Virus record (IMG/VR): IMGVR_UViG_3300020027_000006
Coordinates: 1-64,000 of that record
Length of the DNA stretch: 64,000 nucleotides
Reading direction: 5' to 3' (one strand)
Source of the DNA: a virus
Part shown: positions 604 to 43,467 of the stretch, one piece after another
Layout: each line of letters begins with the position of its first letter
Numbering within the stretch: position 1 is the stretch's first letter
Program-made: the position numbers and the translations under genes
Notes under the pieces: model-generated
Seen by the model: only the letters and a program-made list of their open reading frames with translations
Databases searched by the model: none
Told to the model about the DNA's origin: nothing

Positions 604-1785
604 TCACCAACTGCCGCTGCTTCCTCCTCCACCAAAGTCGCTGCCTCCGCTGAACCCACTGTCACTGCTTGAACTGCTTGAGTCGGAACTACTGGAACTG
701 CTTGAGGAGTAATAACTTTCTCGTCTTCGTTCTTCTTCACGCTCTTCACGTTCTTCACGCTCTCTTCTTTCTTCATCATATTTTTTCCTTTTACGCTCTT
801 GTTCAGCTAATTCTGCTTTACCTTCAGGAGATTCCGACCAAATACGATAACGTTCTGCTTCTATGTCAGCTAACCTTTTTTCTTCCAGTTGACGAGCTTT
901 CTCTTCTTTGACACGATTTTCTTCTTTGACACGATTTTCTTCTAATTTTTTAAGTCGTTTTGTCTCAGCTACTCCATCTGGAGTAAGCAACCAAATACGA
1001 TTCTCTTCTTCTTTTTTAAGTCTTAATACTTCAGCGTCTTTTCGAGCCGCCTCTGCTCGTTCTTTATCCTCACGCTTTGCTTCCGCTTGACTTAAGAATC
1101 TTTGCATTTCTATTGCTTCACGTGTCTTACGTTTATGCCTTGCTATCCCGTATAACCCAACACCCGATAAACCTAGCACTCCCATAACCCCTAAAAAACC
1201 AAACAATAAACCAGTATTGCTTTTGTTATCAGTAGAGGAGACAGAATAAGTATCAGGAGTAGGAGTCGCTATATTTTTCACAGTGACAGCCTCAACAGCA
1301 GAAATAGTAGAAAGAATAGCGTCACGCCAAGCATCAGATGTCCCAGTTTTACTAGCTATTTTAAGTTTTGGCACGAGTGTAGCACGACCAATCGACCCAG
1401 ATTGGCCATCTGTAATGACATACTCCATATGCCTACTTATTTGGAACGCCCATTTACGGTCATCGGTAGCCAGAAAAAGAAGTAGCCCACGTTTTTCCCC
1501 CTCTTTACTTCCAATGCCGTACTCTCTAGCCATTTTAAGACTATAATTGAAAGCTTCATAACTTCCCATAGTCTGAACAGTCGCAACCCCAAACTCCACG
1601 TTATATTTAAGTTTAAATTGATTTAACGTGTTTTGAATAATGGCTTCGTCGGCTTCATTCAAAACATTTGCATGGTCTTGAACAAAAGTGTTTGGCACAA
1701 CAGAAGGAATATTTTGTGCAGTTGCGGACAAAATACCGGAAGCCAGTAATATAAGAAACATTAAGCTGTAATTTATACGTGTCAT
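604..1785 (-). CDS. TPM-domain (YgcG-like) membrane protein
   Basis: Signal peptide, FVQDHANVL...GIGSKE...GLLLFLATDDR TPM motifs, a TM helix, coiled coil, and the typical SGGSDFGGGGSSGSW tail. Confidence 0.85.
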   Translation of the reverse strand: MTRINYSLMFLILLASGILSATAQNIPSVVPNTFVQDHANVLNEADEAIIQNTLNQFKLKYNVEFGVATVQTMGSYEAFNYSLKMAREYGIGSKEGEKRGLLLFLATDDRKWAFQISRHMEYVITDGQSGSIGRATLVPKLKIASKTGTSDAWRDAILSTISAVEAVTVKNIATPTPDTYSVSSTDNKSNTGLLFGFLGVMGVLGLSGVGLYGIARHKRKTREAIEMQRFLSQAEAKREDKERAEAARKDAEVLRLKKEEENRIWLLTPDGVAETKRLKKLEENRVKEENRVKEEKARQLEEKRLADIEAERYRIWSESPEGKAELAEQERKRKKYDEERREREEREEREEERRRESYYSSSSSSSSDSSSSSSDSGFSGGSDFGGGGSSGSW

Positions 1786-2120
1786 TATTTACTCCAATCT
1801 AAAACTAACATTGCCTCATCAGAATTCAAGTTAATATGAGTATCAGAATCCATGTCAGATTCACATATACTAAGCAAAATTTCTGCTTCATTTCTACGTT
1901 TACCTGCATAATACTTCCAATCATTTTGATAACAGGAATTTTTAACTGTATACTCAGCTTCTTCATAAGTGAAATTCCTTCCAAAAAGGAAGTATCTTTT
2001 CTGAGACATCCAGTATTCTATATGATTTTCAAAAAGATGCCTTCTTTCGTCGTCTATACTGGATATACATTTCTTCATAGCCAGTATGACATTAGGTTTG
2101 TAAAAATTTACGGATGCCAT
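1785..2120 (-). CDS. hypothetical protein
   Basis: ORF coupled to both neighbours by stop/start overlap. Confidence 0.65.
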   Translation of the reverse strand: MASVNFYKPNVILAMKKCISSIDDERRHLFENHIEYWMSQKRYFLFGRNFTYEEAEYTVKNSCYQNDWKYYAGKRRNEAEILLSICESDMDSDTHINLNSDEAMLVLDWSK

Positions 2121-2962: not shown

Positions 2963-3187
2963 TTATTTTCTATCCTCTTGTAACACTAAACTACGTAATA
3001 AAAGAGTTGCTCGGCTTTCTAGCCACTTTAGATGTATTTTCGCTCTACAAGACAAGCAGTTAGTCGTGTCGTCTGTGACTTCTGACACTTCTTCAGGAAC
3101 TGGAGAGCAAACATAAGGTTTTTCACTGTATTCTGTTATTTTCTTAGTTGCTCCTTCTTCAATTGTCCAGTTTTCGTTGTTTTTCAT
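2963..3187 (-). CDS. hypothetical protein
   Basis: ATGA overlap with the upstream gene. Confidence 0.5.
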   Translation of the reverse strand: MKNNENWTIEEGATKKITEYSEKPYVCSPVPEEVSEVTDDTTNCLSCRAKIHLKWLESRATLLLRSLVLQEDRK

Positions 3188-3915: not shown

Positions 3916-5692
3916 TCAGACACAGAAACTCCAAGGATGTAGATACCAACAGTCTTTAGTATACTTATATTCTAGTTTCCAATCAAAAATTTCATTTAAC
4001 AGAACTATGACACGTGCTTTTGGTATCATTTTAAAATCATAAATATCCCAAGCAGTAGGAGGGTCAACAAATTCAACATACAATGACCAAGTTATTGCTA
4101 TGTATTCACATAACTCTCTGTCACTTAATTCTCCGCCAAATTCAAATATTTCTGCTCGTCGTTCATCCGTCATTTTTATTATGTTTTTGCTCTCCTAGAG
4201 CAGCACCGATTAGTACAAAAACAGCTATTGTAACGATGCCTAAACCTTTTCTGTCCTCTTGCGTCCAACGAATAAAATATATTTCTCCTGTTACAAATGA
4301 AAGATACAGATAACCTATTACAAATACAATAAAAGGAAAAAAGAAGATGTCAAAATATGCTTTAAGAAATTTGTTCATTGATTTACCTCTTTATATCGGT
4401 CATAGCTGCCATAACAATCGTATTCTTTATAGCCGTCTGCGTTTACTACCAAGAGATTGAATATTGTTGACAAGTGCGGATGTTGCCGTCTGTAATTTCT
4501 TCAAGGTCATTGAGATTGATAAGACGTTTTATTGAACCCCAGAACAGCTCAATTGCAGTGGTTTTATTTTTAGTAGAAAACGGAGGTCGGTACTCAATGA
4601 GTCCTATATTTAGACCACCAGCATCCCCTAAATAAACTTTATAACCGGCGTCACCAGTAAATTTATGTGGGTCTACATGTTTTTTAAAATCTGACAGGGT
4701 AGTTAGATTTTCACCATCATACAAACCTTTTTCAGTTAGTATGCTTTTGACTTTTCTAAGATGTGCATCAATTGCGAAATCGTTTTCCATTAATAACTCC
4801 AGTCTCCTCTCGTAAGTTTATATGTAGGATTACTACTCAACATAAATTTGCTTATCAGTGAGGTAAGAATTTTTCTTTCATCTTCGCGAAAGAGTTGTAA
4901 AAGAGTAGACTCCGCAGATTCTTGAATTACTTCATTCGGAGATAATACATTTTCATTTTTCAGTGCATTTTCATCTTTCAGCTTAACTAAGGCAGTAATA
5001 AACTCAACTATATTTTCTTCAGTTAGTTGATAACTAAGATTTTCACTGTTCACTTCTACTACAAATCGTTTTGTTACGTCTTTACTGTAATTTATCATTG
5101 TTTTGGAGACACTACTTTTTTTGCCCTCTGAAGTTTCTTTATTACTTTACGCAAATTACTATCAAAAAATAACGGAACATGTACTTTCTCTAAAAACTCC
5201 ATAAGTAATTTATATTCATCAATACTTAACCGTTTAATTTGAAATGTAGTTCTACTTTCTTCGTCTCTAGACTCCTCGTCCAGTGTGTCCTGAACATAAC
5301 TAGCTGAACTTCCCATAATTTTCTCCTTAAAGACAGATATTTTCAAAATATCTTACCTTATCTAATCGTATATTTAAATATCCTGATTTAAATACAGTGC
5401 TTTCTACCTCTTCTAATTCTTCAATATATGGTTGAACTGCCTCTGAGATAGTTTCAGGAGCTTTGCGAACCATACTGGCAAATTTATCTATTTGAATACA
5501 GTAATCCCCCATATGAACCTCTCTAGGAGAGTTAATCCCCACACATTTTTTGTAATACTCAGTGTTCAAAGGAGAATCATTTATTTTACGCAAGTTTATT
5601 TCAACATCAAACTCCATAAATAAAGCAACAGCAAATTGAAATTCTATCTTCCTGCGGACAAATTGAGAATAAGAGAGGTGTACTGGCATCAT
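3916..5692 (-). CDS. six small hypothetical ORFs (3916-4173, 4163-4378 membrane, 4446-4790, 4790-5098, 5095-5346, 5327-5692)
   Basis: Co-oriented, closely packed ORFs with overlapping stops/starts. Confidence 0.6.
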
Positions 5693-5798: not shown

Positions 5799-6878
5799 CT
5801 AAAGTACTTCTTTTATCGCTCTTCCTGTCAAAAGCATTAGAAGTCTGTCCACACCCAAGCCTGCACCCCAAGTCGGAGGCAAACCATACTTTAAAGCCTC
5901 TATATAATCCATATCAATTACATCCTGTCTTTCAAAAGCCTCCAATTGTTGCCTCCAATCATCTTGTTCTGAATAGATGTTTGCTATTTCCATTCCTCCG
6001 CAGTAAATCTCATACCTTTCTGGTCTTCCGTCTCCACCAATTTTTGCTAAAGGAGAATCCTCAACAGTAAAATCAGACATTATTGTTGGTTGAATTGCTT
6101 CTTCTTCAATGAAGGGATTATTTGCGTATACAAACTTAGACCAATCAATGCCTCTAACTGTTGTAGTCCCAAAAATATTTTGGACTGTCTCACTTACCAA
6201 CTGCTTAAAAATTTCTAAACCGTCTTTTGCTGTTCCGCCTAAATAAAATTCTAACATAGTAAATTCTGGATTATGGCGTTGAGATAATCCTTCATTTCTA
6301 AAAGATTTTCCTATTTCATAAATTCCAGTTCCACCAAATCCTCCGACAATTAGCTTTTTTAATTCTAATTCTGGAGCAATACGGAGAAAATACTCCTCAG
6401 TCTTAAAAGGTTTCGCATCACAACCGAACGCATTTTCTATAAGAGTAGGTGTTTGCACCTCTATAAAGCCCCTGCCATCAAGAAATTTGCGTATAGACGA
6501 TAAGACCTTTGCACGAAGCAGTATTGTGTCCCTATAACTAAGGTCGCGTTCCTTAGAAACAATTTCAGAAAGTAACGCTAAATGCTTGTTCTTACGTGAC
6601 TTATCTACACTAACTCCTGATATTCGGTCAGGTAGACCTAGCTCACATTTTCTTAGTAAGTTTAACTCAAGTAATCTAAGTGTATTCTCACCTGTTTTAG
6701 TAACAAACATTTCACCAGAGCAAGAAATGATGTCTCCTTGTGAGAGACTGATAAATTTACTCCAAGTTGATAAGTCACTCTTGGAAAACAGTTGTTGATA
6801 TTTTCCATCTGAAAACAGATGAACGAAGGCCAGCTTACCCATTTTACGTGGAGCACTTGTAATTCTACCGATTAGCAT
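5799..6878 (-). CDS. lysS: compact class II lysyl-tRNA synthetase (ORF track extends to 6956; homology starts near MLIGRIT)
   Basis: OB-fold RKMGKLAFVHL, then FIEVQTP, LRIAPELELKKLIVGG, YEIGKSFRNEG..RHNPEFTMLEFY, YGLPPTWGAGLGVDRL. Confidence 0.92.
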   Translation of the reverse strand: MLIGRITSAPRKMGKLAFVHLFSDGKYQQLFSKSDLSTWSKFISLSQGDIISCSGEMFVTKTGENTLRLLELNLLRKCELGLPDRISGVSVDKSRKNKHLALLSEIVSKERDLSYRDTILLRAKVLSSIRKFLDGRGFIEVQTPTLIENAFGCDAKPFKTEEYFLRIAPELELKKLIVGGFGGTGIYEIGKSFRNEGLSQRHNPEFTMLEFYLGGTAKDGLEIFKQLVSETVQNIFGTTTVRGIDWSKFVYANNPFIEEEAIQPTIMSDFTVEDSPLAKIGGDGRPERYEIYCGGMEIANIYSEQDDWRQQLEAFERQDVIDMDYIEALKYGLPPTWGAGLGVDRLLMLLTGRAIKEVL

Positions 6879-7074
6879 ATAATTGAAAACTGAACATTGA
6901 AAATTGAAAATTGAAGCCATTGTTCTGAGGCGTCCCGGAATCCGGGATTCAGTCATAAATCTTAAATAAGAATCTACAGCCTCAAATTCTTAAGACTTCT
7001 TAAATCAAATTCAGGTAAAGTAGAAACTCTGTGTCGTTTCAACCATTTTTTATTACAGAGTCAGCATGCATAAT

Positions 7075-7746: not shown

Positions 7747-8478
7747 TTACGTATCATCATCGTGTATTAACCAAGAAAGATTAAACTCCCCTTCTTTTGG
7801 TCTGGTCTGAACTTCCTCAATTTCTTTATTGTCTTTTACTTCTACCCCGAATCCTGCTAGTGGGTTTACGTTTATCTCTTCTGCATCCACACCTTCTCGT
7901 ACATAACCCTCTGCTAGAGCAAAAGCTAATTCACATCGTGCTTCAGCCTCAGTAAGTTGATGTTGACCTGAAAAAAGTGCTCCATCGTAGCCTTTTTCAA
8001 CTGAGTACAGTCCGATTGTGTACTCCGCTAGACGGAAAAAAGATTTACCTTTATAATAGATTCCAAGTGCTTTCTCTCGAGCCAGTGCAGTACGTTTAGA
8101 AAGATGTATCGCAGTCTCTTTTTCTACCTCTTCTCGAGTCACGCCTTTGAATACACGTGTATATCCTTTTTCAAGAGTACCTGTAAAGCGTTTAATCGCA
8201 TCAGGACGCTCCAGAACCTCTTCTTCTACCTCACCGTCCACCTCGCCTTTACGCCACACCACAGAGCCCTCCAGCGGTTCTCCGTCTTTGGTCTTACCAG
8301 AATGATATAATTCAAAGAATAATTTCCGTGAGTAGTTTTCATATCTGCCATAAACACAAAAAAACTTCTGAATCAGCATCTTTTTGAATTCTTCAATAGA
8401 CAGACCTTCAAACTCTTTTGCAATTTCACCTGCATCGTTTGCTTTGGTCAGAGACCGTTTTGTATCCGCACTTGACAT
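7747..8478 (-). CDS. hypothetical protein
   Basis: 243-aa ORF with GGAG SD; ends NLSWLIHDDDT. Confidence 0.7.
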   Translation of the reverse strand: MSSADTKRSLTKANDAGEIAKEFEGLSIEEFKKMLIQKFFCVYGRYENYSRKLFFELYHSGKTKDGEPLEGSVVWRKGEVDGEVEEEVLERPDAIKRFTGTLEKGYTRVFKGVTREEVEKETAIHLSKRTALAREKALGIYYKGKSFFRLAEYTIGLYSVEKGYDGALFSGQHQLTEAEARCELAFALAEGYVREGVDAEEINVNPLAGFGVEVKDNKEIEEVQTRPKEGEFNLSWLIHDDDT

Positions 8479-8487
8479 TATTTTCTC

Positions 8488-8787
8488 CTACCTCCCACCA
8501 AGCCAATCTTGAAACGCCATAACTTTCTGAAAACCACCTTCAGTAAGTGGCACAGTGTTAATGTCAACTTCTATCCAGCCTAATCTCGTAAAAGACTGAA
8601 GATAAGAATGAACATCCTCCTCATCTACTAAAACATGGCATTCGGATGCAAATCCTACTACTCCGAAAGTATACATATATGGCTGCATTTCTTGATTCCG
8701 TTCAAGCTGTGCAAAACACTGTCTTTTTCGAGAGTCTAAGCCTTCATATCTTATTATATTTGTCATAACATCCTCTAAACTATACAT
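8488..8787 (-). CDS. W-tag family small protein
   Basis: Ends AFQDWLGGR. Confidence 0.65.
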   Translation of the reverse strand: MYSLEDVMTNIIRYEGLDSRKRQCFAQLERNQEMQPYMYTFGVVGFASECHVLVDEEDVHSYLQSFTRLGWIEVDINTVPLTEGGFQKVMAFQDWLGGR

Positions 8788-8939
8788 AGTATATCATAGA
8801 AATAAAATTTTGTCAATCATTCATTTTAAAGTATTAATTGGTTTAGGAGTTATTGTTTCGAGGCTATGAATTAATTCTTCGAATGCTGTCACACATAACA
8901 CACAGTTTTTTGTAGGTAATGTAGGTAATGTTAATTTTA

Positions 8940-9413
8940 TCATTTAGTTAACCAAGAATGGAGATTATTTTTATACGGCTCTAGAGCAATGTCCACTTCT
9001 TCAAACATATCCTCACAGTAAAATTCGTAATCAAATATAATATCTTCATTGGCTGCCCAAATATCATAAGATTCAAGATTTTTAATGTCTATCCTGTAAA
9101 CATTTCCTGTAGGGCTGCCGCTGCTGTCTATTACTTGACTTACAGTACCTTTTACAGTACCTTTTTCCCCTGTATATTTAACAATTATTCTGTCATTAAA
9201 TAAAAATTCATTTCTTGAAAATACAGTACCCTCAGCAGATATTATATCTCTCCACCCTAACCAAAGATTTGAATGAGTTGTTTCAACTTTATATGAAAGA
9301 TAATCTCTAGAATTAAAGTAATCAACGAATATTATTTTCCCTGTATGGTAAAAATACTTATTATTGTCTTTAACTCTGATTATCACCAAGTCATTTTCTT
9401 TAAATTCTCTCAT
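8940..9413 (-). CDS. KOW/SH3-like W-tag protein
   Basis: FKENDLVIIR start; ends NLHSWLTK. Confidence 0.7.
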   Translation of the reverse strand: MREFKENDLVIIRVKDNNKYFYHTGKIIFVDYFNSRDYLSYKVETTHSNLWLGWRDIISAEGTVFSRNEFLFNDRIIVKYTGEKGTVKGTVSQVIDSSGSPTGNVYRIDIKNLESYDIWAANEDIIFDYEFYCEDMFEEVDIALEPYKNNLHSWLTK

Positions 9414-9652
9414 TTTAACCAGTTATGTATGCTTACTGATGTCTCCGAATCTATAAGAATTATCTCATGTTCATGCAATGTAAATCTCTTAAGTTTATTA
9501 TTTAAAGTTCTGTACTCTATTGTTACCCAATAACCAGATTCATTGGAGAAAAACACATTGGTAACAATTTTCTTGGCACTGTCCGCACCTTTTCCTCGTA
9601 AATGTTTACGATTTAAAATATCTACTTCATCGCCCTTTTGAAATTTAGACAT
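9410..9652 (-). CDS. KOW/SH3-like W-tag protein
   Basis: FQKGDEVDI start; ends SIHNWLK. Confidence 0.7.
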   Translation of the reverse strand: MSKFQKGDEVDILNRKHLRGKGADSAKKIVTNVFFSNESGYWVTIEYRTLNNKLKRFTLHEHEIILIDSETSVSIHNWLK

Positions 9653-10590
9653 TACAGTTCCAGAACAGTGTACACTTTTTCCATAGTTTCACTCGCCCTT
9701 GAACGTGCATAGATTCTCCCTTCTTCAAGTCTATTTTGAACATCGTTGTCTGTTATAGACTCCATAGAGTTAGTTATGCTTCCAGTTAATAAAAATAATC
9801 TGGATAATATATCATCTTTTAATTCGGAATAACTACCACCTAAAAACTCTTCGTCTCCAAAACCTAGCTGCTTTCTTATATTTAAAAGATTTTTCACCCC
9901 TTCATCCGAGTAATCAATTTTACCTGCTGTTGTACGTGCGGATTTAATCTTTTTTTGTATGACCTCAAATGTATCTGTTAAATACAGTACTCCTTTTGGA
10001 TTAGGGTCAGATTTTGACATTTTAAATTCTGGTGTAGTTAAAGAAAGAATACGAGTATCCTCAACAACACCTGCCGGTACAGTAAACGTATTAGGAAATA
10101 ATTTATTAAACCGTTTAGCAAGTAAAATTGCTAATTCGAGATGTTGAATCTGGTCATGGCCTACTGGTACAAAGTGAGTATCATACAATAGTATATCAGC
10201 CGCCATTAACACTGGGTAGCTGAAAAGACCTAAGTTTTCTCGTGGTTGATTTAATTGCTTAACCTTAAACTGTGTCATTCGTTCAAGCTCACCCATACGA
10301 ACGTAACAACTAAGTATCTGACACAATTGAGAGTGTTCTGGAACGTCTGATTGTACAAAAATATCTGATTTAATTCCGCAAGCCATTAAAGTTTTTGCAA
10401 GACGCAGAGTTTTATTTTTTAAACCTGTCTGCGGAACAGTTAATGAGTGCAGATTAGCAATACAGACTAAACCTGTAAAACTTAATTCTAAGTTAATAAA
10501 AGGTTTTACAGCACCAAAATAATTACCTAGATGAAGTTCACCTGTTGGCTGTATTCCTGTAAATAAATTTCCTTTAATCTTATTCTTCAT
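9652..10590 (-). CDS. trpS: tryptophanyl-tRNA synthetase
   Basis: TGIQPTGELHLGNY (HIGH-like), YPVLMAADILLY, VPVGHDQIQHLE, KMSKS. Confidence 0.95.
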   Translation of the reverse strand: MKNKIKGNLFTGIQPTGELHLGNYFGAVKPFINLELSFTGLVCIANLHSLTVPQTGLKNKTLRLAKTLMACGIKSDIFVQSDVPEHSQLCQILSCYVRMGELERMTQFKVKQLNQPRENLGLFSYPVLMAADILLYDTHFVPVGHDQIQHLELAILLAKRFNKLFPNTFTVPAGVVEDTRILSLTTPEFKMSKSDPNPKGVLYLTDTFEVIQKKIKSARTTAGKIDYSDEGVKNLLNIRKQLGFGDEEFLGGSYSELKDDILSRLFLLTGSITNSMESITDNDVQNRLEEGRIYARSRASETMEKVYTVLEL

Positions 10591-10621
10591 ATACTTAATA
10601 TAACATAAAAATAGACTTTTG

Positions 10622-12859
10622 TCAACAATTATTTGTTGACCTAACTAACCAATTTTCTATTGCCAACACTCCTTCTAAGTTGTCTATTTCCGAATCCAAG
10701 AATTTATTGTAAGGTGATAAATAGGAGCCTCTAAATACGCCTGTTTTTCCAGACATTATAAATTCAATTTGATATTGAAAGTAAAAACTTTCATTAGACT
10801 CGTCATATGCCTTACTAATGGATATTACTTTTCCTACAGAGTGTAGATTATCCCCTCCGCTTCTGTTAATAACCTCATCTCCTATATTAAAAACAGCTCG
10901 TAACAGACTTACGCCGTAGTTACTTAGCCACAATCGTTCTCCAAGTAATTTAACTTGATTGAGTCTTACGTTTTCTACTTGCCAATATTTCTGATAATGC
11001 TCGGATTCTTTTGTTACTAAGTCTCCTATTCTCATCTCCTCTCTTACAAATATCATATTTTACATTTTTTCAGACATCCAAATTTGAACAGCACTATCTT
11101 CGTATACCGTCTCAATGATTTCCTCTCCAACTCTAATAAACGCACTACGTGGTAACACAAGAGAACATTTAGAATTATACAAAGATGGGAAGTTTCCTTC
11201 CATCTGAGCAAGGCAAATTTCATATTTATCGTAATTAGAAGTTACTCCTGTTACAATACCTTTTCTGCCGTAATATATACTTTCTTTTGAAACTCCTGAA
11301 ATTTGAATATGAGTTCCAACAGGTGTAAATTTATACTCTAGACTAATATTTTCAGATTCACCAAAGACGGTTCTAGGTTTAAAATTCCATTCAAATGCCG
11401 TTACGTGAACCATATCGTCTTCAATAAATTTAACATGACCACGTATCCACTTTATTTCACCTTCATGAAAAGTTTTTACTGATACTTCGTCTCCCACACC
11501 GTATTCCATATTAACCTGCTATCCATATATAAACTGCAGAACTATCAAATACTTCAAACTCTGAGTCTATAACTGAAAACTGAGACCTGTCTAATAAAGT
11601 ATAAATTGAATCTGGGTCAAGCCTTACTGTATAATCAGAGTAATCATAGCTTATACTCATTATCGTTCCTTCTCTGTTTTTCCACTTTTCACTGGTTACT
11701 TTAATTCGTTTACCAACACTTGAAGCTTTATGCGTTGTAATAATTTCATGTGATTTACGATACTCGAATTTTCTGAAATCGGGAAAACTCCCATGACTTA
11801 TAATAATTCTATCTTCTTCAGAGTATATATCAATAATATATCCATAAATATCAGTATCTTTAATTTTTACTCTGTCTCCTATTTCAAACTCCATAACTAT
11901 CCTTTTAACCAGTCATGTACAGGAACTTCTTTTTTTATTTCAATCCACTCTGTTGCTTTATTTTCTGCATCCCATAAAGCCCATGACTTGAATTTTTTTA
12001 GCAGCATATTTTCAAAATAAATTTCAGCCCCGAATCTTACTCTAAGACCATCGTACCTAGTAAACTCTTCATCATCAATTAAATAACCAGAACGAATAAT
12101 ATATCTATCACATTCTTTATCTGAAGAACTCCAAAAAATATTACGTACACCGTTTACTCTGTCATTTATCCAATTCTCACAATCTTCTAACGCATCTATC
12201 GGCTCAATCACGTTTTTTGAAGTATGCCCACCTAAAAAACTATGTCCAAAGGTATTTGACAGTGAGATATAGCCGTTAATCTTGTTTTTACACAATAAAA
12301 GTTCAGGTAAAGTTTTTATTGTTATCAAATATTCTTTGTAGATAATTTTTTCTATGACTCTCGGCAAAACTAACATAGTCAACTCCCCAACCAATCTGAT
12401 AGAGAAGTATCAGGAGGATGTATTTTCTCTAAAATAAAATAAGGTAAAGTTATAATAATTTCAGTGCTTGATTCGTATCTAGTTTTAATTTTAATGTGAA
12501 GGTTAGATTTTATTCCAACTACAGTACCTCTCTGTAATTCAGGAACAAGCCAACCAGACTCCTCCCAAACTACTTCATCTCCTATATCAAATTCAAGTTT
12601 TATCATGTTAATTTTCTAACCAGTCTGATAGAGAATTGTTAATGAATTCAGCTTTTTTAACCATACTTTTTAAAGTTAATTTTTTTAACCAGCCGTTAGG
12701 AAGAGTTTTAACCTCACCAACCTCTGCACCCTGTTCGGGCTCAAGTCTAACGTAGGAACAATACGTTCCTACAGTAAGTATGGTTCCTTTTCTCATTTCG
12801 ACTAAGTTATTTACACAGATTTTATAAGTCACCTCATCGCCTTTTTCAAATTTTAACAT
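10622..12859 (-). CDS. six W-tag ORFs, mostly KOW/SH3-like (10622-11056, 11060-11509, 11511-11894, 11897-12394, 12379-12606, 12608-12859)
   Basis: F/Y-x-x-GD-x-V starts; C-termini AIENWL, AVQIWM, AVYIWI, PVHDWL, SLSDWL, SLSDWL. Confidence 0.75.
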
Positions 12860-12903
12860 AAAATATATTTTATCATATGTATTCTATTTTGTCAATACAA
12901 AAA

Positions 12904-15458
12904 TTAAATCCTCAACCACTGTTGCACCGCATTAGAGTCCTTATCAGGATTATCACTCGCTCTTTTAACTAATTTAAAATCCTCGAAAAATAAGTCGCCA
13001 GTCCTAACACGGTCGGAAGAAGCATCGAAGTAAGTAAATCCAGCTTTCATCCTTCCTTCAACCAAATAAACAGAAGTCACAATTGTTCTTGAGCCGTTAA
13101 GAAGTTCGATTATATCTCCTTTCTTTATAAACTCTAAAGGCTCCGATTCTAAAATAACAAGTATTCCTTCAGAATTTATATAAGTGCCATTATTAAGTTG
13201 AAAGACTTGTAATTTTTCAAAAGCCGTAAATTGAATTAAAATGAAGTCTTTAACTACATCTGATACTACTCCTTTTAAATACTCCCCCTCTGGAGAACAA
13301 TAATGTATTGATTGACCAACTATAAACATATATCTAATTCTAACCAACGATGAAGTCCGTCTTTTTCAGGTTGTATTACTATTAAATCAGCGTATCGAAA
13401 TTCCTCGTTCCAGCCAACACCTTTTTCTGTATATGATACCCTCGCCCAACAATCGTTAGCAGGTAATTCTATCCAAGTCTTGAATACCTCTCCTATCTCA
13501 CCGTTAGGAAGGAGCACTTTATCACATATTTTTATTCTGTCTAATGAATCTGTATTTAAGAAGTTTAAAGTTTCGTTATAACAATTTTGGTATAATTCAG
13601 ATTCCGGAGAATAATTAAAAGTTTCTACCATTTCTGGGAAATTCCATTTAGCCAAAATAAGAGGTGGAGAATCAAATATAGCATATACTGTTCCTTTTTT
13701 TATTATTTGTTTTCCATCTCTTCCTCTTCCGTCAGAAAGGCTCCAAACATTCATTCCTTTGACAATTAAATCTTTCATACCTTTGCGGACAACCAATTTG
13801 TTACACTCGTATTTTCAATAATCAGCTCAGTTGTAAAGCTTAAATTATCCTCATGCATAAAAAAATCATTATAATCATTTACCTTATGTACAGCCTGTCC
13901 ATTATCATCTACAGAACAAACACAGTAAATATATTCCGAACCCTCAAAGTTTTTTCTTACGGATACAATAACTCCTTTTACAAGAGGAAGTTCTGAACCG
14001 TACTTAACCGTTACACAGTCACCTGTTTTAAATTTTGGATAACTCATTAGACATCCAATTAAGTACAGGATAAAGTGTTGTATCCTGCACCTCTAATTTA
14101 TCCTCCCAAACCCAAACTCTTTCACCAGTTATAAGACGTACTAAATATATATTTATAACTTTATCTTGACGCCAATCAAATTCAGACTTACATCTAACTA
14201 TATGTCCTAATGTATTATTTGTTAGTATTATTACTTTTGTATTATCTTCAAATTTTATCGAGTTTGCCCGTCTGTCACTGGCTTTTTCAATCAAAGTAAG
14301 CTGATTGACAGGCTTTAAGAATCTTTTTATGCGTCCTGCATCATCAACACCTCTTATATAATACGCTTCGGGGTGCAATTTAGAAGGACAAAATATATAC
14401 AGATTTCTATAAAAATACAGATAGTCACAGCGTACTTTGTCATTTTTCTGAAATTTATACTTACTCATATATTTATAATCCATTCACAAACTGGTGAAAT
14501 AACTGAAAAAATATCTTCTTCTAAGTCTGACTCAAAACACCAAATTGTTTCTTCATTATCGAGTTTTAAAAGATATTCATGTATAACTTCGCCTTTAATT
14601 ACATATTTTTGAAATTTATACATATATCATTCGTTCGCGGACAGCCAATTTTGTACAAAATTAACTTCTTCGACTATCCCATCATCCTGTATAAAACTTT
14701 TTGGGTGTATAGAAGTTAAAGTCCACCAAAACCTGTGAACAATTTTGAAAATATGTTTATAATTATCTTCTTCCAGTCTTAAATCATAATAACTTTCGTC
14801 GAAAGACAGAGAAACCGATTCTGTTTGTCCATAGTTTTCTACGATACATCTTATTCCAATTTTGTGCGGAGAGCTTTTATACAGTACAAGTTCTCCTATC
14901 TCAAATTTAGGTTTCTTCATAAATTTTCTATCCACCTGTAAACAGACTCATCAAAAACATCTTCATTAGCTGTATAAGGTAGTACATTTGTCAGTCTATC
15001 CTCTAAATACACACCGCTCACATTACAACCTTCTAAAAATGAATGTGTTGTATAGACAGGAAATTTATCCAAACCTATTCGAGATATTTTAACTATTATT
15101 CCAATAAACGGCTCTTTTTTAGGCTCTGTAATCATTACAGATTGTCCTATACTATATTTAGGTTTGTTCATGTTCCATTCATTTAGATACAGAAGATTCT
15201 GAATTATCAGAATTTTTCATTGGTCAGCCAATTCTGTAAGCATTCGTAAACAGGTATAATAGACTCTAAATATTGATTTTTAAAATACAGTGACTCTTCA
15301 AACTCAGTTATAACTGTATATTGATATTTTTCTACTTGTCCTATCAAATCGTGGACGATTGTAATCTCTGTTATTCTACCTATCTTATTGTTATGAGTGA
15401 CACTAGGGGACACGATACGGACTATATCTCCTATTATGTACTCTGGTTTTCCTAACAT
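12904..15458 (-). CDS. eight W-tag ORFs (12904-13347, 13320-13796, 13775-14047, 14028-14483, 14465-14623 [52 aa, not in ORF track], 14627-14935, 14917-15171, 15207-15458)
   Basis: Mostly KOW-like N-termini (FKTGDCV, FEIGELV, YSIGQSV, YIIGDIV); C-termini AVQQWL, GLHRWL, SVTNWL, PVLNWM, PVCEWI, FVQNWL, SVYRWI, CLQNWL. Confidence 0.75.
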
Positions 15459-15602
15459 ATATCTAATTAAATTTACCCATTCGCGGACAGAGAATAAGTT
15501 TACGAATCAGTTCCTGAATAAGTAGTCATTAAACTTTCAGGAAGTATAACACCTAATTTATTACCTAGACGGATAATCTCTCTATTGTCTAAATCACGTT
15601 GC

Positions 15603-16109
15603 TCAGTTTTCACTTACTTTAGACGCTTCAGATGCCTTTACCAGCTCTACCAATTTCTTTTTATTAAACAATATACCAGATTCAAACATAGCCAAAACTG
15701 TGAGTCCATTATACATGGAGCCGCTCCATAGACCAGTATCTCCGTTTTTAATATTAATGAAGTTGCTAACAGATGAATCGTATTTTACAGTAAGTTTTGT
15801 GTCCTCTCTCGTGTTCAATAGATTTACTTTATTTGTTAAACTTTCAAAAATAACAGTCTCTGCGGACTTTACCGGCTCCTCATCCCAATGTGTCCAAGCC
15901 AATATATAAACCCAATCAATGCTTTCACCGACAGGAGTGTTACCAACTACAATAAACCTGAGTAAGGAACTGCCTCCCTCGCTGATTGAAATATATGGAA
16001 AATCTTTGTCGCTGTGTTCAGTAATAGTAAGTTTATTTGATTCACATATATCATTTATTTCAGTTAGAATATATGTACGTTTTGTAAATAAATTTTTAAG
16101 TTCAGTCAT
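15603..16109 (-). CDS. hypothetical protein
   Basis: 168-aa ORF with AGGAG SD; no W-tag. Confidence 0.65.
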   Translation of the reverse strand: MTELKNLFTKRTYILTEINDICESNKLTITEHSDKDFPYISISEGGSSLLRFIVVGNTPVGESIDWVYILAWTHWDEEPVKSAETVIFESLTNKVNLLNTREDTKLTVKYDSSVSNFINIKNGDTGLWSGSMYNGLTVLAMFESGILFNKKKLVELVKASEASKVSEN

Positions 16110-16130
16110 AAATTTCTCCTAATCTTCAAT

Positions 16131-16457
16131 CTAATTAACTAACCAATCGACTAAATACGCTTTCACATTTTTCTGTTCATTATCTATAAGTTCGTTGGCA
16201 ATAAGACAAGCAGATTCTATGTTAGAATAATATTTCATTTTTTTGAATTCTCCAGTATTTCACATAGTTTTTATTCATTTGCGGACAGCCAATTCTGTAC
16301 ATCAGAATAACCTTCTTCGATTTCAATAGAAGGTTCATATGCTTCAATCATAGCTTTTATAAGAAGTTCAGCTCCAGACTCTGCACTTTGTACAGTAGTA
16401 AAACCCTTTATGGGTATAGTCAGAGACTAAATGCATTACATCTATTGAACTTTCCAT
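16131..16457 (-). pseudogene. short or frameshifted W-tag ORFs (16131-16238 ends YLVDWLVN; a frame ending at 16271 ends SDVQNWLSANE)
   Basis: Translated by hand; upstream parts are out of frame. Confidence 0.5.
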
Positions 16458-16460
16458 TTT

Positions 16461-16721
16461 TTATCCTTCTGCGGACATCCAATTGAAGACCGCTAAAGTT
16501 ATTTGACTCTTCTTTTCATCCAGTTCTTTTGCTAAAATACCAGATATATAATACTCAGCAAACATTTTAGCTCTATAAACAGTAGTAAAATTTTGAGCCA
16601 GATAATAACTTCCGTCATCTTTGTAAAGTTTAATTTTATATGGTGCTTCTTTATCCCAATCCCATATATCTTCGGGTGATTCAATTACATAACGTACACC
16701 TTTATAATAATAATTAGACAT
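16461..16721 (-). CDS. W-tag family small protein
   Basis: Ends AVFNWMSAEG; promoter upstream (about 16745-16771). Confidence 0.7.
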   Translation of the reverse strand: MSNYYYKGVRYVIESPEDIWDWDKEAPYKIKLYKDDGSYYLAQNFTTVYRAKMFAEYYISGILAKELDEKKSQITLAVFNWMSAEG

Positions 16722-17360
16722 AAACTTTATTCCTTGAATTTATTGTACCATATACAATCTCTTATGTCAATAAAATAATACTTTGGTGTTAATTTTATAC
16801 ACCGCTCGCGGACAAAAAATTAGGCGAACTGTCCAATCTTTTATATAAATTTATATAATATATAATAACAACCAATATTAGACAGTAAAAAGAGCATATA
16901 TTCTGAATACAAAAGAGCAATTAAAAAGAGAAAAATATATACAAAACAGCTTTATTTATATAAGAGATAAACAATATTACACATTAAGTAAATATAAGAA
17001 AACCAGACACAAAACTAATTTTTTAATACCCACCTGCGGACGAAGAAAAAGCTAATAAATACTAAGAGCAAATAAAAAGATAACTAACAAAGAGTTAACT
17101 AATACAGAAGAAGAGAACTAAAATAAAAGCCTTATAGAGTAATAGAGAATAGAGTAGCCAATAGAGTTCATAGAGCCTCATAGAGTGTCATAGAGAGCCT
17201 CATAGAGTGTGCATCCACCCTCCCAATCATAAAACCCGTCCTCAACAAAACCCAATTAAAGCCAATTATATACAGTAAACCTATACACAATCCATATACA
17301 ACCCAATTGTGGTACGTGCCACATTTTACAGGTAACTGTATTAAACACAATAGGTTAAGA

Positions 17361-27112: not shown

Positions 27113-29455
27113 TTACCCATGTACTGGAGCTGTGTACTTAAACTTTTGCTTTATGTCAATTGAGTGCTTTACACTTACGTAATTCATACAAACTATCATT
27201 CGGTCAAGGTCTTGTCTTGTGGCTTGCGGAAACATGATAGCTCCTGTTGCATTGGATTTTACTTGATACGTACCATCATCACTCTTTGAAACTTCCATAC
27301 CCGAATTAGTTAGCTTCCGGAGCGTGTCTCGTATATCGGAGGTTGCTACAAGAAAGAATGTTTTATTGTTTGTCATATGTTTTATTCTCAACGTATAATT
27401 AGCTTACCAAATGGAAGCTAATTTGTCAATACTTTTATTGGTTCACTAAGCAGTTTGATTAACTTATCTTCAACTTCTTTGAGAAAGTCGTCTTTACCTA
27501 ATACATCAGCCATAGGAGTTCCATAATCACTCCATCCTTCGGATGTTATGTTATTCTCGAATGCTTCTACTATAATTGTTATTATTTCGTTTTTCATTAT
27601 ATTATCTTACCAAATGGAAGCTAATTTGTCAACACTTATTTTCCAGTTGAGGTTATTTTATTTTTATGTACTCATGTGCCCATACTTCTCGTTCTTCCAA
27701 CCCCCATGTGAGCAAGCCACAACTCTTCAGTTTTTCCGCGTCCGATAATGAGTAAATTGAAAATTTAAAAACCGTGCCTGATATTTCTACCAAACACGGT
27801 AAATTTTTTATATCTTTTGCGGACGAAAGAATAAGGTTGCCTTAAATACCCATCATCTCAGACACCGAGAACGAGACCCAACTTTGACCCTTATATCTTT
27901 CGTTTTGCTTTGCTTCTACTACAACGATTATATCTGGTAGTGGTGCTACTACCTTTTCTGCAGTTTGAACCGTGTACTCGCCCTTAACACGTCTTTGTTC
28001 GGTAATGGTGAATAGCTTTACAAAGCCACAGCTAAATTGAATGTCGTATGTATTACCTTTCTTTGGACAGTTAGTTGATTTGTTTCCGCACTTCGTTAAA
28101 AACGGGCAAATTTTACCCTTACGTATTTTTAACGACTTCGTTATGTTGTTCAAGGTTGCCATAGAAGTATATTAGCAAATAATGATTTGTTCATGTTCGT
28201 AATCTTTAATTATCTTACTAAACGGGAGTTAACTTTGTCAAGTAAAAAGTGGGAGTTTTTTACTTTTATTCCTACGAAAGAGGTGCAAACCACGGCTCTC
28301 GGTCAGCGACCTTATTGTAAAAAGTTTCACCATTCGCGGTCAACCGCTTAATGGTGTTCAAATTAATTACTCGATACTTTTCCTCACCTTCTTTCAATAC
28401 TCCGTTTTCATGTTTGGGATTAGATACTTCAAACACGCCAACCATATCACGAGCGGTTAAAGTAGCTTTACGCTTTGCCGTTATTTCCGGCTGTGTGTTT
28501 TTGACATAACGCTTTACTGCAAGCCGTGCAGTCATAGTCCGTTCCGTACCGTCTTGCTTAGTGAACACTACGGTGAAAAACTTGTCACCTACATAGCGTT
28601 TGAATAATTCGATTGTTAAATTGTTAATCAGCATATGTTTTCTTTACGTCCTTTAACGTAAGGATATAATAGCACAAATTTAGAATAGTGTCAAGAGAAA
28701 AGAGAGTTTCTTTATTTTAATTAACTGAAGCTGTGTTATGCAAAACTTCTTTACCCTCGAGCTCCGCAAGTTCTACAGCAAGGAGTCCCTGTTTAGATTT
28801 TGGTACACGAAAGAATTCGCGAGCCTTTTGTGTCGCCTCCCAAAGACTCCCTGCATCAATAATATGTTGTTTTTGATTGTAAAATGCAATGTATTTGTTC
28901 ATATAATTATCTTACCAAACGGGAGTTAACTTGTCAACAATTTTCTTAGATTTTTGAAAAAAGTGGGAGTTTTTTTCTTTAATCCATACGCGATTCTGCA
29001 TAACAGTTAATACCAGAATTTTGCAATACTTTAGCCATTGCACTTGCATGAGCATATTTACGCTCCATGCTTTGTCCGTAATCACCCACCCGAATATCGT
29101 AACCACCCGTGTAGCTTGTTCCTTTACAAATGCCTTGTGCTTTAAGCCATTTAGCAAAGGCACTGGTTGCTGGCTTAACTTTTACCCATGCAAAACCGCA
29201 AACACCGGAATAGATAACTTCCACAGACTTGCTCATGTCTATTTCATTCGAAAATAAATCTTTAGCTTGCCCGACGACCATTGGAGTAGGAGTGCAAGCC
29301 TTAGCAGCTGTTTGTCCTGCAAGCATTGCACGGTCGTATAGTTCTCGAAATGTTTCAGCTTTAGGTTTACTATTAAATCTTTGCGGTACATCCGACTCAA
29401 GTAATTGTTCGTAAGTTAAAATGTCAGGTTCGTTGTTCATAATTTTGTTCCTCAA
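27113..29455 (-). CDS. early-type ORFs (27113-27391, 27842-28162, 28272-28634 SH3-barrel-like, 28717-28902, 28979-29455)
   Basis: Individual promoters; FFTVVFTKQDGTERTM and GVCGFAWV resemble common phage hypothetical proteins. Confidence 0.65.
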
Positions 29456-38143: not shown

Positions 38144-38533
38144 TTAAATTTTAGTTAAATCAGCTGTCCAAGTATATTTTGATTTGTCAAGTGTTTGGTG
38201 AAAATCACCTGCGGCGTTTTTGTAAGTTGTTACTATCTCTTTTGTTGTCAAAGAAACTACTGCACAACAAAAATTTCCTGCGACTTTACCGCGTACCAGA
38301 ACCCGAACTTCTCCTCCGTTATTGTTTGCCTCTATTACGGAGCAATAGGTTAACATTGCCTTTATCTGTGTTTCGTCCACATGCTTTTGATTCATTCTAT
38401 CCATTGCATGATTTCGGAAAGCATAATTTGACGAACGAACCTGACTCATTAAATTCTGTATTTCAGGTTGTGACATTTGGGTATAGTGTTTTCGGTTTTC
38501 CATAATGATTCCCTCTACTAAATATATTAGCAA
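38144..38533 (-). CDS. DUF4258-like (RelE-like fold) protein
   Basis: YAFRNHAMDRMNQKHV...VRVLVRG...EIVTTY. Confidence 0.6.
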   Translation of the reverse strand: MLIYLVEGIIMENRKHYTQMSQPEIQNLMSQVRSSNYAFRNHAMDRMNQKHVDETQIKAMLTYCSVIEANNNGGEVRVLVRGKVAGNFCCAVVSLTTKEIVTTYKNAAGDFHQTLDKSKYTWTADLTKI

Positions 38534-42349: not shown

Positions 42350-43467
42350 TTATTCTTTTAACCAATTGTGTAATGGTGTTATTAGTTTATTTAGTCTTTT
42401 TTCTTCTTTTATTACTTTTTGTTTATTTTCTCTCTCCACACGTAGTCTAATTTTTTGTCTTATTGTAAGAGCTGATTTATGTAACTTATCTAATGCACTC
42501 ATATCACCATCTTGAAGAGTCTTTAAGTGCTCTTTTGAAAGAGGTCTAAGTGGTAAAGATTTAATTAATTTCTCTCGTTTCTTTTTATTTTTTATTTTTA
42601 CCTCTTCTGGTATTGTGTTTGGCATTTGTTTTGGTTCCTTTTATTTTGTCCGCGAGGCACTTAAATTTTTAACCATTTGAAAACTGGGCTTTCTTTACCT
42701 GATTCAGTTTTGATTTGATTATTTGTTTGATTGTGGTTTGAAGGTCTGTTATCTTCTTTTTGATTATTTCTAATTCTGGTTGGATTTTAGAAAAAGCATA
42801 ATAATCATCTGGATGCATAACATAATCGTAAGCTAACCTGTCTCTGTCTTTAATAAGAATATTTAGTTTCTTTTCTAGAGTCTTTATTTTATAGTCATCC
42901 ATTTTTGTATAGGTAAGCTGCATACAGTATTTAATTTATCTTGTATCCTATCTTTTTCTTTTTGTATTTTTTTGTCCAACTCTATTGTTTTTAAGCTTAT
43001 TCTTCTTACCTCATCATTGAATACTTCTAAGCCTATATGAGTTGTATTCATTTGTCTCCAATACTCATTCTTTAGTGCGTCGTATTCGTTCCAATTTAAC
43101 TCCCTCTCTATGATTAAATCCTTTAATTTTTTAGATGTGGCATTCATTATTTCTTCTTTAACCATTTTTGTACACTGTTTGCTTCTTTTTGAGCTTCTTT
43201 TTGAGCTTCTTTTTGAGCTTCTTTTTCAAGCTTTTTAGTTAACTTTATCTGTGCTTTCTTAGTTATAAGTTTTGCTAAATATAGTTCAATATAATCCCTT
43301 GAATAAACCAGTTTTTCTATTTGTTTTTGTATAGACAGGGCATTTTTTACATCGTAGAGATTAAGGCTTACTCTGTAATTATTGTTTAGTGAGAATATTT
43401 TTGATATTATTGAGTTTAACTCGTCTGATACTTCTTCAATTTGTTTTTCTATATCTAGGTCACTCAT
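42350..43467 (-). CDS. four coiled-coil ORFs (42350-42625, 42669-42923, 42884-43165, 43147-43467); three carry the W-tag
   Basis: C-termini PLHNWLKE, PIQKWMTIK, SVQKWLKKK. Confidence 0.7.

Follow-up and report, generated by a model that had tools for sequence, protein, structure and literature searches.

A recurrent C-terminal tryptophan motif on about 25 small phage proteins as a candidate docking or address peptide

Introduction

That a short peptide at one end of a protein can act as an address is an established principle, known from the capsid targeting sequence (CTS) of phage T4, from the clients of clamp proteins and from the cargo peptides of encapsulins. Encapsulin cargo-loading peptides (CLPs) are C-terminal, follow a flexible linker and dock diverse cargo inside a shell of the HK97 fold. 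Among clamp clients, the tails of gp43, gp33 and gp55 of phages T4 and RB69 bind the gp45 clamp, and archaeal examples of the PIP type read L-x-x-W-L/F. SSB (D-D-D-I-P-F) and the T7 proteins gp2.5 and gp4 have acidic flexible tails with hydrophobic or aromatic tips that dock partners. In this study, we describe a short motif centred on a tryptophan residue, here called the W-tag, which is found close to the C terminus of about 25 small proteins encoded on a 64,000-nucleotide stretch of phage DNA (positions 1 to 64,000 of the IMG/VR virus record IMGVR_UViG_3300020027_000006; referred to below as the window). Two established systems serve as analogues: the diverse small T4 proteins IPI-III and Alt share one short terminal peptide whose partner is the scaffolding core (PMC3012670), and the PIP-box of PCNA clients is a short motif located at extreme termini (PMC3504372).

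An earlier note on this DNA, made from the sequence alone, had pointed to an array of about 20 diverse small proteins that share such a terminus. Here we revisit this array, ask how its tag compares with the known terminal peptides and weigh the explanations that can be given for it.

Results and Discussion

The W-tag is enriched at C termini

The record from which the window is taken is 75,244 bp long and has a CheckV completeness of 56%. The window contains 23 intact tagged open reading frames (ORFs), all on the minus strand, 20 of which lie at 7747-16721 and three at 42350-43467 (Table 1); with two frame-broken copies, this makes approximately 25 tagged proteins, or roughly one sixth of the genes on the fragment. 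Aligned on the tryptophan, the termini give the consensus [S/A/P]-[V/L/I]-[Q/H]-[N/D]-W-[L/M/I]-[S/K/T/E], after which 1-8 more residues follow, so that the W-[L/M/I] pair is trailed by 2-9 residues that vary in number and kind. V, L or I is found at position -3 in 21 of the 23 proteins, while W and, at position +1, L, M or I are present in all 23. Column -6 (S4, V3, K3, D3, N2 and others) shows no preference for Gln.

When the pattern [VLIF]xxW[LMI] followed by 0-9 residues was searched for at the ends of the 262 ORFs of the record with 50 aa or more, it was found in 23 of them, compared with 2.0 ± 1.4 after shuffling the residues of each ORF (maximum 9 in 2000 shuffles), and the claim that the shared terminus stands above background is therefore borne out. 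Within 9 residues of the end lie 23 of the 42 copies of the motif that occur anywhere in the 262 ORFs, and the 23 tagged proteins, with 2600 residues in total, hold a single internal copy. One tag is present per polypeptide, whether the body is a coiled coil, a single or double SH3-like barrel or of another kind. Because a peptide that is terminal, occurs once per chain, sits on a flexible tether and is kept while the bodies diverge or differ reads as a docking or sorting signal, we propose that the W-tag is probably a portable address or docking handle, read by what we infer to be one common receptor.

All 20 motifs listed in the earlier note are present; 19 of them end ordinary ORFs and one, DVQNWL, ends a frame without a usable start. 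Five further tags were found, namely the NLSWL terminus of the ORF at 7747-8478, those of the three coiled-coil ORFs at 42350-43467 and that of a broken copy ending in PVFKWLKI. The observation that the genes at 18-40 kb are untagged was correct, the interval from 16.8 to 42.3 kb being free of tagged genes. The tag is absent from all called structural genes.

The motif is conserved at the protein level

In the codons of the tag, information is concentrated in positions 1-2; at position 2 it amounts to 1.41 bits in the -3 codon and 1.67 bits in the +1 codon, compared with 0.02-0.6 bits at third positions. Of the codon pairs that encode an identical amino acid of the tag, 57% differ in codon, where 63% would be expected from the codon usage of the genome. 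The synonymous sites are hence near saturation, and the shared tag is not accounted for by recent gene conversion; two paralogous VQNWLSANE tails show synonymous differences alone. Selection acts on the motif as protein sequence, in agreement with what had been supposed from the variability of its codons.

It had also been considered that the TGG codon might stand at a fixed distance from the next ATG and act as a signal in RNA. More broadly, the TGG region could function as a nucleic-acid signal in translational coupling, in pausing at the Trp codon or as a recombination joint. In line with this, a tryptophanyl-tRNA synthetase (TrpRS) gene is located within the array, and in 9 of the 23 cases TGG precedes the next start by 14-17 nt. 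However, across all cases the distance from TGG to the next start ranges from 8 to >60 nt, ordinary GGAG-type ribosome-binding sites intervene, and untagged genes of the same operons are without the motif. The hydrophobic class at positions -3 and +1 is kept through many codons, with the information residing in codon positions 1-2, and pausing at a Trp codon leaves no role for conserved hydrophobic classes at these two positions. On the basis of the distances and the codon statistics, an RNA-level signal was rejected, and a nucleic-acid signal of any of these kinds seems extremely unlikely.

An acidic tether and a predicted terminal helix on differing bodies

The 16 residues that precede the tag (-20 to -5) have a net charge of -1.83, whereas windows drawn at random from the bodies give -0.08 ± 0.43 (as low a value in 0 of 5000). 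The acidic linker described previously is therefore confirmed, except in the three coiled-coil members, which are basic and lack it. As a group the tagged proteins are mostly acidic, with a median pI of 5.1.

An SH3 profile built from seven single-module members, from which the tails had been removed, recovers 12 of the 23 bodies: its own seven members and, weakly, five members with two modules. The other eleven, which are proteins of 243, 99, 165, 158, 157, 86, 52 and 35 aa and the three coiled coils, are not recovered by this profile. While KOW/SH3-like bodies had been claimed for most of the proteins, this holds for about half of them, the others being coiled coils or of other kinds. The single-chain AlphaFold2 (AF2) model of the 90-aa member, a model of medium confidence for which the paralogue alignment served as input, shows a five-stranded SH3-like barrel (strands 11-15, 22-32, 39-46, 52-57 and 62-64) with a predicted local distance difference test (pLDDT) score of ~80. 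In the tail, where pLDDT falls to 33-43, the sole predicted element is a helix at 82-88 spanning V-T-N-W-L-S-A, which is not packed against the barrel. A second model, of the 127-aa two-module member, is of low confidence and has the same layout, with a terminal helix at 118-126. The short terminal helix that had been envisaged is thus seen in the models, detached from the barrel and placed after the acidic tether, at low tail pLDDT. In a Foldseek search with the 90-aa model, the best rows were bL19, KOW and PWWP barrels, all with E >=0.02, and the matches of the bodies to the Pfam families KOW2_Spt5, SH3_12 and MSSS were all below cut-off. The predicted resemblance to SH3/KOW proteins is therefore one at the level of the fold and does not imply membership in these families.

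Since at least 12 of the 23 bodies can be recognised as members of one family, it might be argued that no external reader exists and that the tag is a conserved piece of an expanded paralogue family, which serves as a helix for self- or hetero-association or as a ligand of the family's own SH3-like barrels, is inherited by descent and has reached a few other bodies by recombination. Binding of short peptides is frequent among SH3-like folds, and tails within a subfamily share DNA, for example TGG-NTG-TCC-GCN. This explanation appears improbable, as the tag is also found on coiled coils and on non-SH3 bodies, proteins with two modules bear a single tag rather than two, and the saturation of synonymous sites shows that the sharing does not stem from recent gene conversion. 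In addition, AF2 leaves the tail undocked on its own barrel, although this is weak evidence.

Promoters, position in the genome and possible fates

Each tagged operon has at its head a near-consensus host-type promoter (TTGACA-17-TGnTAnnnT), and these promoters are found at 16770, 12895, 10625, 8816 and 7731; a similar promoter, TTGACT-17-TGtTAAGAT, lies upstream of the coiled-coil trio. The terminase operon is also headed by a similar host-type promoter, and for this reason we do not take the promoter type as proof of early timing. Such promoters occur at a much higher density in the untagged block at 19-40.5 kb than in the tagged arrays: on the minus strand at 19200-40550 there are ~40 near-identical copies (TTGACA-17-TGnTA(A/C)(T/A)(A/C)T), approximately one per small gene as opposed to one per tagged operon. 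A common late-promoter motif (TATATTATACT) was considered as well and was rejected for lack of enrichment.

One specific form of the address reading is that the tag binds the interior of the procapsid or the scaffold, and that the small proteins are taken up into the particle and enter the host along with the DNA, in the manner of the T4 internal proteins or of encapsulin cargo. Three or four tagged, scaffold-like coiled-coil ORFs directly adjoin the terminase/head block, and the host-type promoter of the terminase operon means that the presence of the tagged proteins late in infection is not excluded by the type of their promoters. On the other hand, 26 kb or more separate the main array from the head genes, the array is driven by consensus host-type promoters, no called structural gene is tagged, and the acidity of most tagged proteins is unlike that of internal proteins embedded in DNA. 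A protease site of the type hydrophobic-x-E occurs 24 times in the linkers compared with 18.3 ± 3.2, which is not significant. Taken on its own, targeting to the capsid or scaffold is, in our judgement, rather unlikely.

It has also to be considered that the tag could be a degron or timer, that is, an exposed aromatic/hydrophobic tail which is read by an AAA+ protease or adaptor of the host or the phage and makes the tagged proteins a short-lived class. The peptide is hydrophobic and aromatic, is exposed on a disordered tail, and every tagged gene lies behind a host-type promoter; a common fate would be a simple reason for a common tag. In this respect the W-tag recalls the ssrA tag and the SspB XB peptide on ClpX, which are terminal peptides giving unrelated proteins a common fate. 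However, a degron of the ssrA type needs fixed last residues and a free carboxylate, whereas the W-tag stands at a variable distance from the end, with 2-9 variable residues trailing it. Because of these residues a classic C-terminal degron is unlikely, and for the degron or timer in general we see only a small chance.

Comparison with described terminal peptides

Of the known systems, the T4 internal-protein locus has the gene-array pattern most similar to the one described here: in both cases there is a cluster of small proteins that are diverse and have nothing but the tag in common, and the organization is one of tag plus variable domain. The two differ in that the T4 CTS is N-terminal, is cut by the prohead protease and belongs to proteins of the virion, whereas the W-tag is C-terminal, has another sequence and no evident cleavage site, and is known from genes alone. 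The acidity of the tagged proteins is a further difference.

With the PIP-box the W-tag has in common its place close to the very end of the chain on a flexible tether (2-9 residues follow it, and pLDDT of the tail is 33-43). Its pattern of a hydrophobic residue, two spacers and an aromatic plus a hydrophobic residue resembles that of the PIP-box, where these residues fold as a short helix and fill a pocket; in the W-tag a helix is modelled at low pLDDT, and the second position of the W-[L/M/I] pair is aliphatic rather than aromatic. The W-tag lacks the conserved Gln that in the PIP-box stands three positions ahead of the first hydrophobic residue. Twenty-five small clients would be unprecedented for a clamp, and no gene with a DnaN, PCNA or gp45 domain was found in the 75-kb record.

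Encapsulin cargo also carries a short C-terminal peptide on a flexible linker for the docking of diverse proteins. The CLP consensus, however, is Gly/Ser-rich and hydrophobic and is unrelated to the W-tag, and the cargo genes adjoin the shell gene, whereas the main W-tag array is at least 26 kb from the head block. The acidic flexible tether ending in hydrophobic or aromatic residues is reminiscent of SSB, gp2.5 and gp4; in these systems one or two carriers of the tail serve many readers and the tip is the last residue, while here there are many carriers and 2-9 trailing residues. Mimicry of the C-terminal peptide of FtsZ (I-x-x-F-L), which has the same hydrophobic pattern, was considered and set aside, as the conserved Pro of FtsZ is absent from the W-tag; we know of no reason why a phage should encode 25 mimics of this peptide.

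How the tag may work

In the mechanism that we propose, S, A or P would cap the N terminus of a helix of one to two turns, on one face of which V/L/I, Trp and L/M/I would come together and plug a hydrophobic groove of one common receptor. The peptide has 2-9 free residues behind it and is carried by a flexible tether, whose mostly acidic character would favour a receptor with a basic rim. The tagged proteins, expressed from host-type promoters, would in this way be handled as one class and be recruited, sorted or packaged together. We find a shared fate, be it a place, a package or a lifetime, the more economical reason for the tag, because it would be odd for dozens of proteins to compete for one site on a host target. 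By our own ranking, the first candidate for the reader would be a hub of the type that binds clamp clients or SSB tails, followed by the capsid or scaffold interior and then by a protease or adaptor. The label of effectors, which the earlier note gave to the tagged proteins, is itself an inference.

Several points weigh against a docking or address peptide. A six-residue motif cannot name its partner, given that the pattern hydrophobic-x-x-aromatic-hydrophobic is common in helical docking peptides. About half of the tagged proteins are SH3-like paralogues, and in these the sharing of the tag reflects in part common descent rather than independent acquisition. The helix in the tail has a low pLDDT, and none of the related loci that were recovered bears the array.

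Frame-broken, degenerate and variant copies

Two tagged genes are split. The DVQNWL frame (16271-16426) can be joined to the ATG at 16456 only if the frame shifts by 1 nt in AAAGGGTTTT, and the gene of the copy ending in PVFKWLKI (42661-42786) is likewise split by a shift of one base, here in an A-rich run. Both shifts are located in homopolymer-rich sequence, and the frame bearing the tag is still open in each gene; the splits could represent sequencing errors, fresh pseudogenes or programmed shifts. Candidate degenerate tags are found in a 111-aa ORF at 1785-2120 (minus strand), which ends in ...AMLVLDWSK, and in a 74-aa ORF at 2963-3187 (minus strand), in which ...KIHLKWLES is followed by 16 residues.

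In a second metagenome, the 1787-bp contig Ga0193753_10071888 is 99.8% identical to window positions 12385-14238 and lacks the 65 nt at 13140-13204, which lie inside the tagged gene at 12904-13347. A variant of the 90-aa protein, Cys44Arg, is present on a 32-kb contig, and proteins of this phage recur on a contig of 250,550 bp.

Table 1. Tagged genes of the window and untagged genes within or beside the main array
Position	Strand	Product	C-terminal end	Remarks
5799-6956		Class II aminoacyl-tRNA synthetase		Untagged
7747..8478	-	243 aa, non-SH3 body	...EFNLSWLIHDDDT (NLSWL)
8488..8787	-	99 aa	...MAFQDWLGGR	Pfam: no family
8940..9413	-	157 aa, two F.x[GN]D.[VI] modules	...NNLHSWLTK
9410..9652	-	80 aa, one SH3-like module	...SVSIHNWLK
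9652..10590	-	TrpRS		Untagged; Pfam tRNA-synt_1b, E 7e-56; own promoter at 10625
10622..11056	-	144 aa, two modules	...LAIENWLVRSTNNC
11060..11509	-	149 aa, two modules	...SAVQIWMSEKM	KOW2_Spt5 match, sub-threshold
11511..11894	-	127 aa, two beta modules	...SAVYIWIAG	Low-confidence AF2 model, terminal helix 118-126
11897..12394	-	165 aa (159 from ATG), non-SH3 body	...VPVHDWLKG
12379..12606	-	75 aa, one module	...TSLSDWLGS
12608..12859	-	83 aa, one module	...NSLSDWLEN	First gene behind promoter at 12895
12904..13347	-	147 aa, two modules	...NAVQQWLRI
13320..13796	-	158 aa	...DGLHRWLELDICL
13775..14047	-	90 aa, SH3-like barrel 1-62, low-confidence tail 63-90	...TSVTNWLSAKV	AF2 (tag helix 82-88), Foldseek
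14028..14483	-	151 aa, two modules	...YPVLNWMSNELSKI
14465..14623	-	52 aa	...SPVCEWIINI
14627..14935	-	102 aa (97 from second ATG), one module	...NFVQNWLSANE
14917..15171	-	84 aa, one module	...ESVYRWIENL
15207..15458	-	83 aa, one module	...ECLQNWLTNEKF
15603..16109	-	168 aa		Untagged; without family match
16131..16238	-	35 aa (mini-ORF)	...AYLVDWLVN
16271..16456	-	Frame-broken gene	...SDVQNWLSANE	ATG at 16456, 29 codons, then stop; +1 frame continues
16461..16721	-	86 aa, non-SH3 by hidden Markov model	...LAVFNWMSAEG	First gene behind promoter at 16770
42350..42625	-	91 aa, basic coiled coil	...TPLHNWLKE
42661..42923	-	Frame-broken gene	...ESPVFKWLKI	84-aa ORF 42669-42923 overlaps a 41-codon open frame with this end
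42884..43165	-	93 aa, coiled coil	...LPIQKWMTIK
43147..43467	-	106 aa, coiled coil	...NSVQKWLKKK	Promoter TTGACT-17-TGtTAAGAT upstream, ~43570-43541

Homologues and genome context

Database searches with the tagged proteins detected no homologue outside this phage. No Pfam or PHROG family reached the cut-off, 50,697 phage genomes searched with tblastn gave no match, and the ESM Atlas held no usable one. A HMMER profile of seven members, run against 1.84 G representatives, found the proteins of this phage and generic PKFKVGD repeat proteins and nothing else, and a word-index search of 5.8 G proteins with the 243-aa member found only the query. Exact DNA patterns had no match in the viral and genome collections and, in a scan of metagenomes, matched only the 1787-bp fragment described above. 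Single-protein scans for relatives with TrpRS and with the portal were empty, as was a scan of genome contigs. The portal has many relatives at 60-68% identity, and the tag array is absent from the five IMG/VR loci that were recovered by portal alignment (<=46% identity). In one record, IMG/VR 3300019360_000015, whose portal is 46% identical, a 131-aa ORF at 616-1011 (minus strand) ends in ...RLQKWLESAI, which fits the tag; the contig stops just past this ORF.

The window has a GC content of ~34%. Encoded in the record are a terminase with inteins, a DUF935-type portal, tail genes, TrpRS, a class II aminoacyl-tRNA synthetase and a histone-deacetylase-like gene. Judging by its strong Shine-Dalgarno sites and its extended -10 promoters, the phage may infect a Bacillota-like host. 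Adjoining the class II synthetase gene, and with TrpRS nearby, is a 121-aa ORF (5327-5692, minus strand) that consists solely of the N-terminal, tRNA-binding domain of arginyl-tRNA synthetase (PF03485, E 1.5e-6, above cut-off). Two small untagged proteins, both encoded on the minus strand, match a WYL_2 Sm-like SH3 barrel (28272-28634; E 8e-5, below cut-off) and DUF4258 (38144-38533; E 9.5e-7, above cut-off), respectively.

Conclusions

While the principle of terminal address peptides is not new, the motif, the number of its clients and its reader would be, and as far as we could find neither such a motif nor such an array has been described before. In a stronger form, which we put forward with less assurance than the docking role itself, the W-tag may be a phage-specific sorting code, in which one receptor, encoded by the phage or the host, gathers ~25 early small proteins into one place or fate, for example by loading them into the capsid for co-injection or by anchoring them at a replisome hub. 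Among the gene products of large phages are hundreds of small orphans that resist annotation by homology, and a shared label places ~25 of these in one functional class. A peptide of 6-10 residues is at the same time an experimental handle, which could reveal the receptor and with it the fate of this orphan class. If the W-tag is indeed a code for packaging or localization, it would provide a ready-made tool to load cargo into phage particles or compartments.

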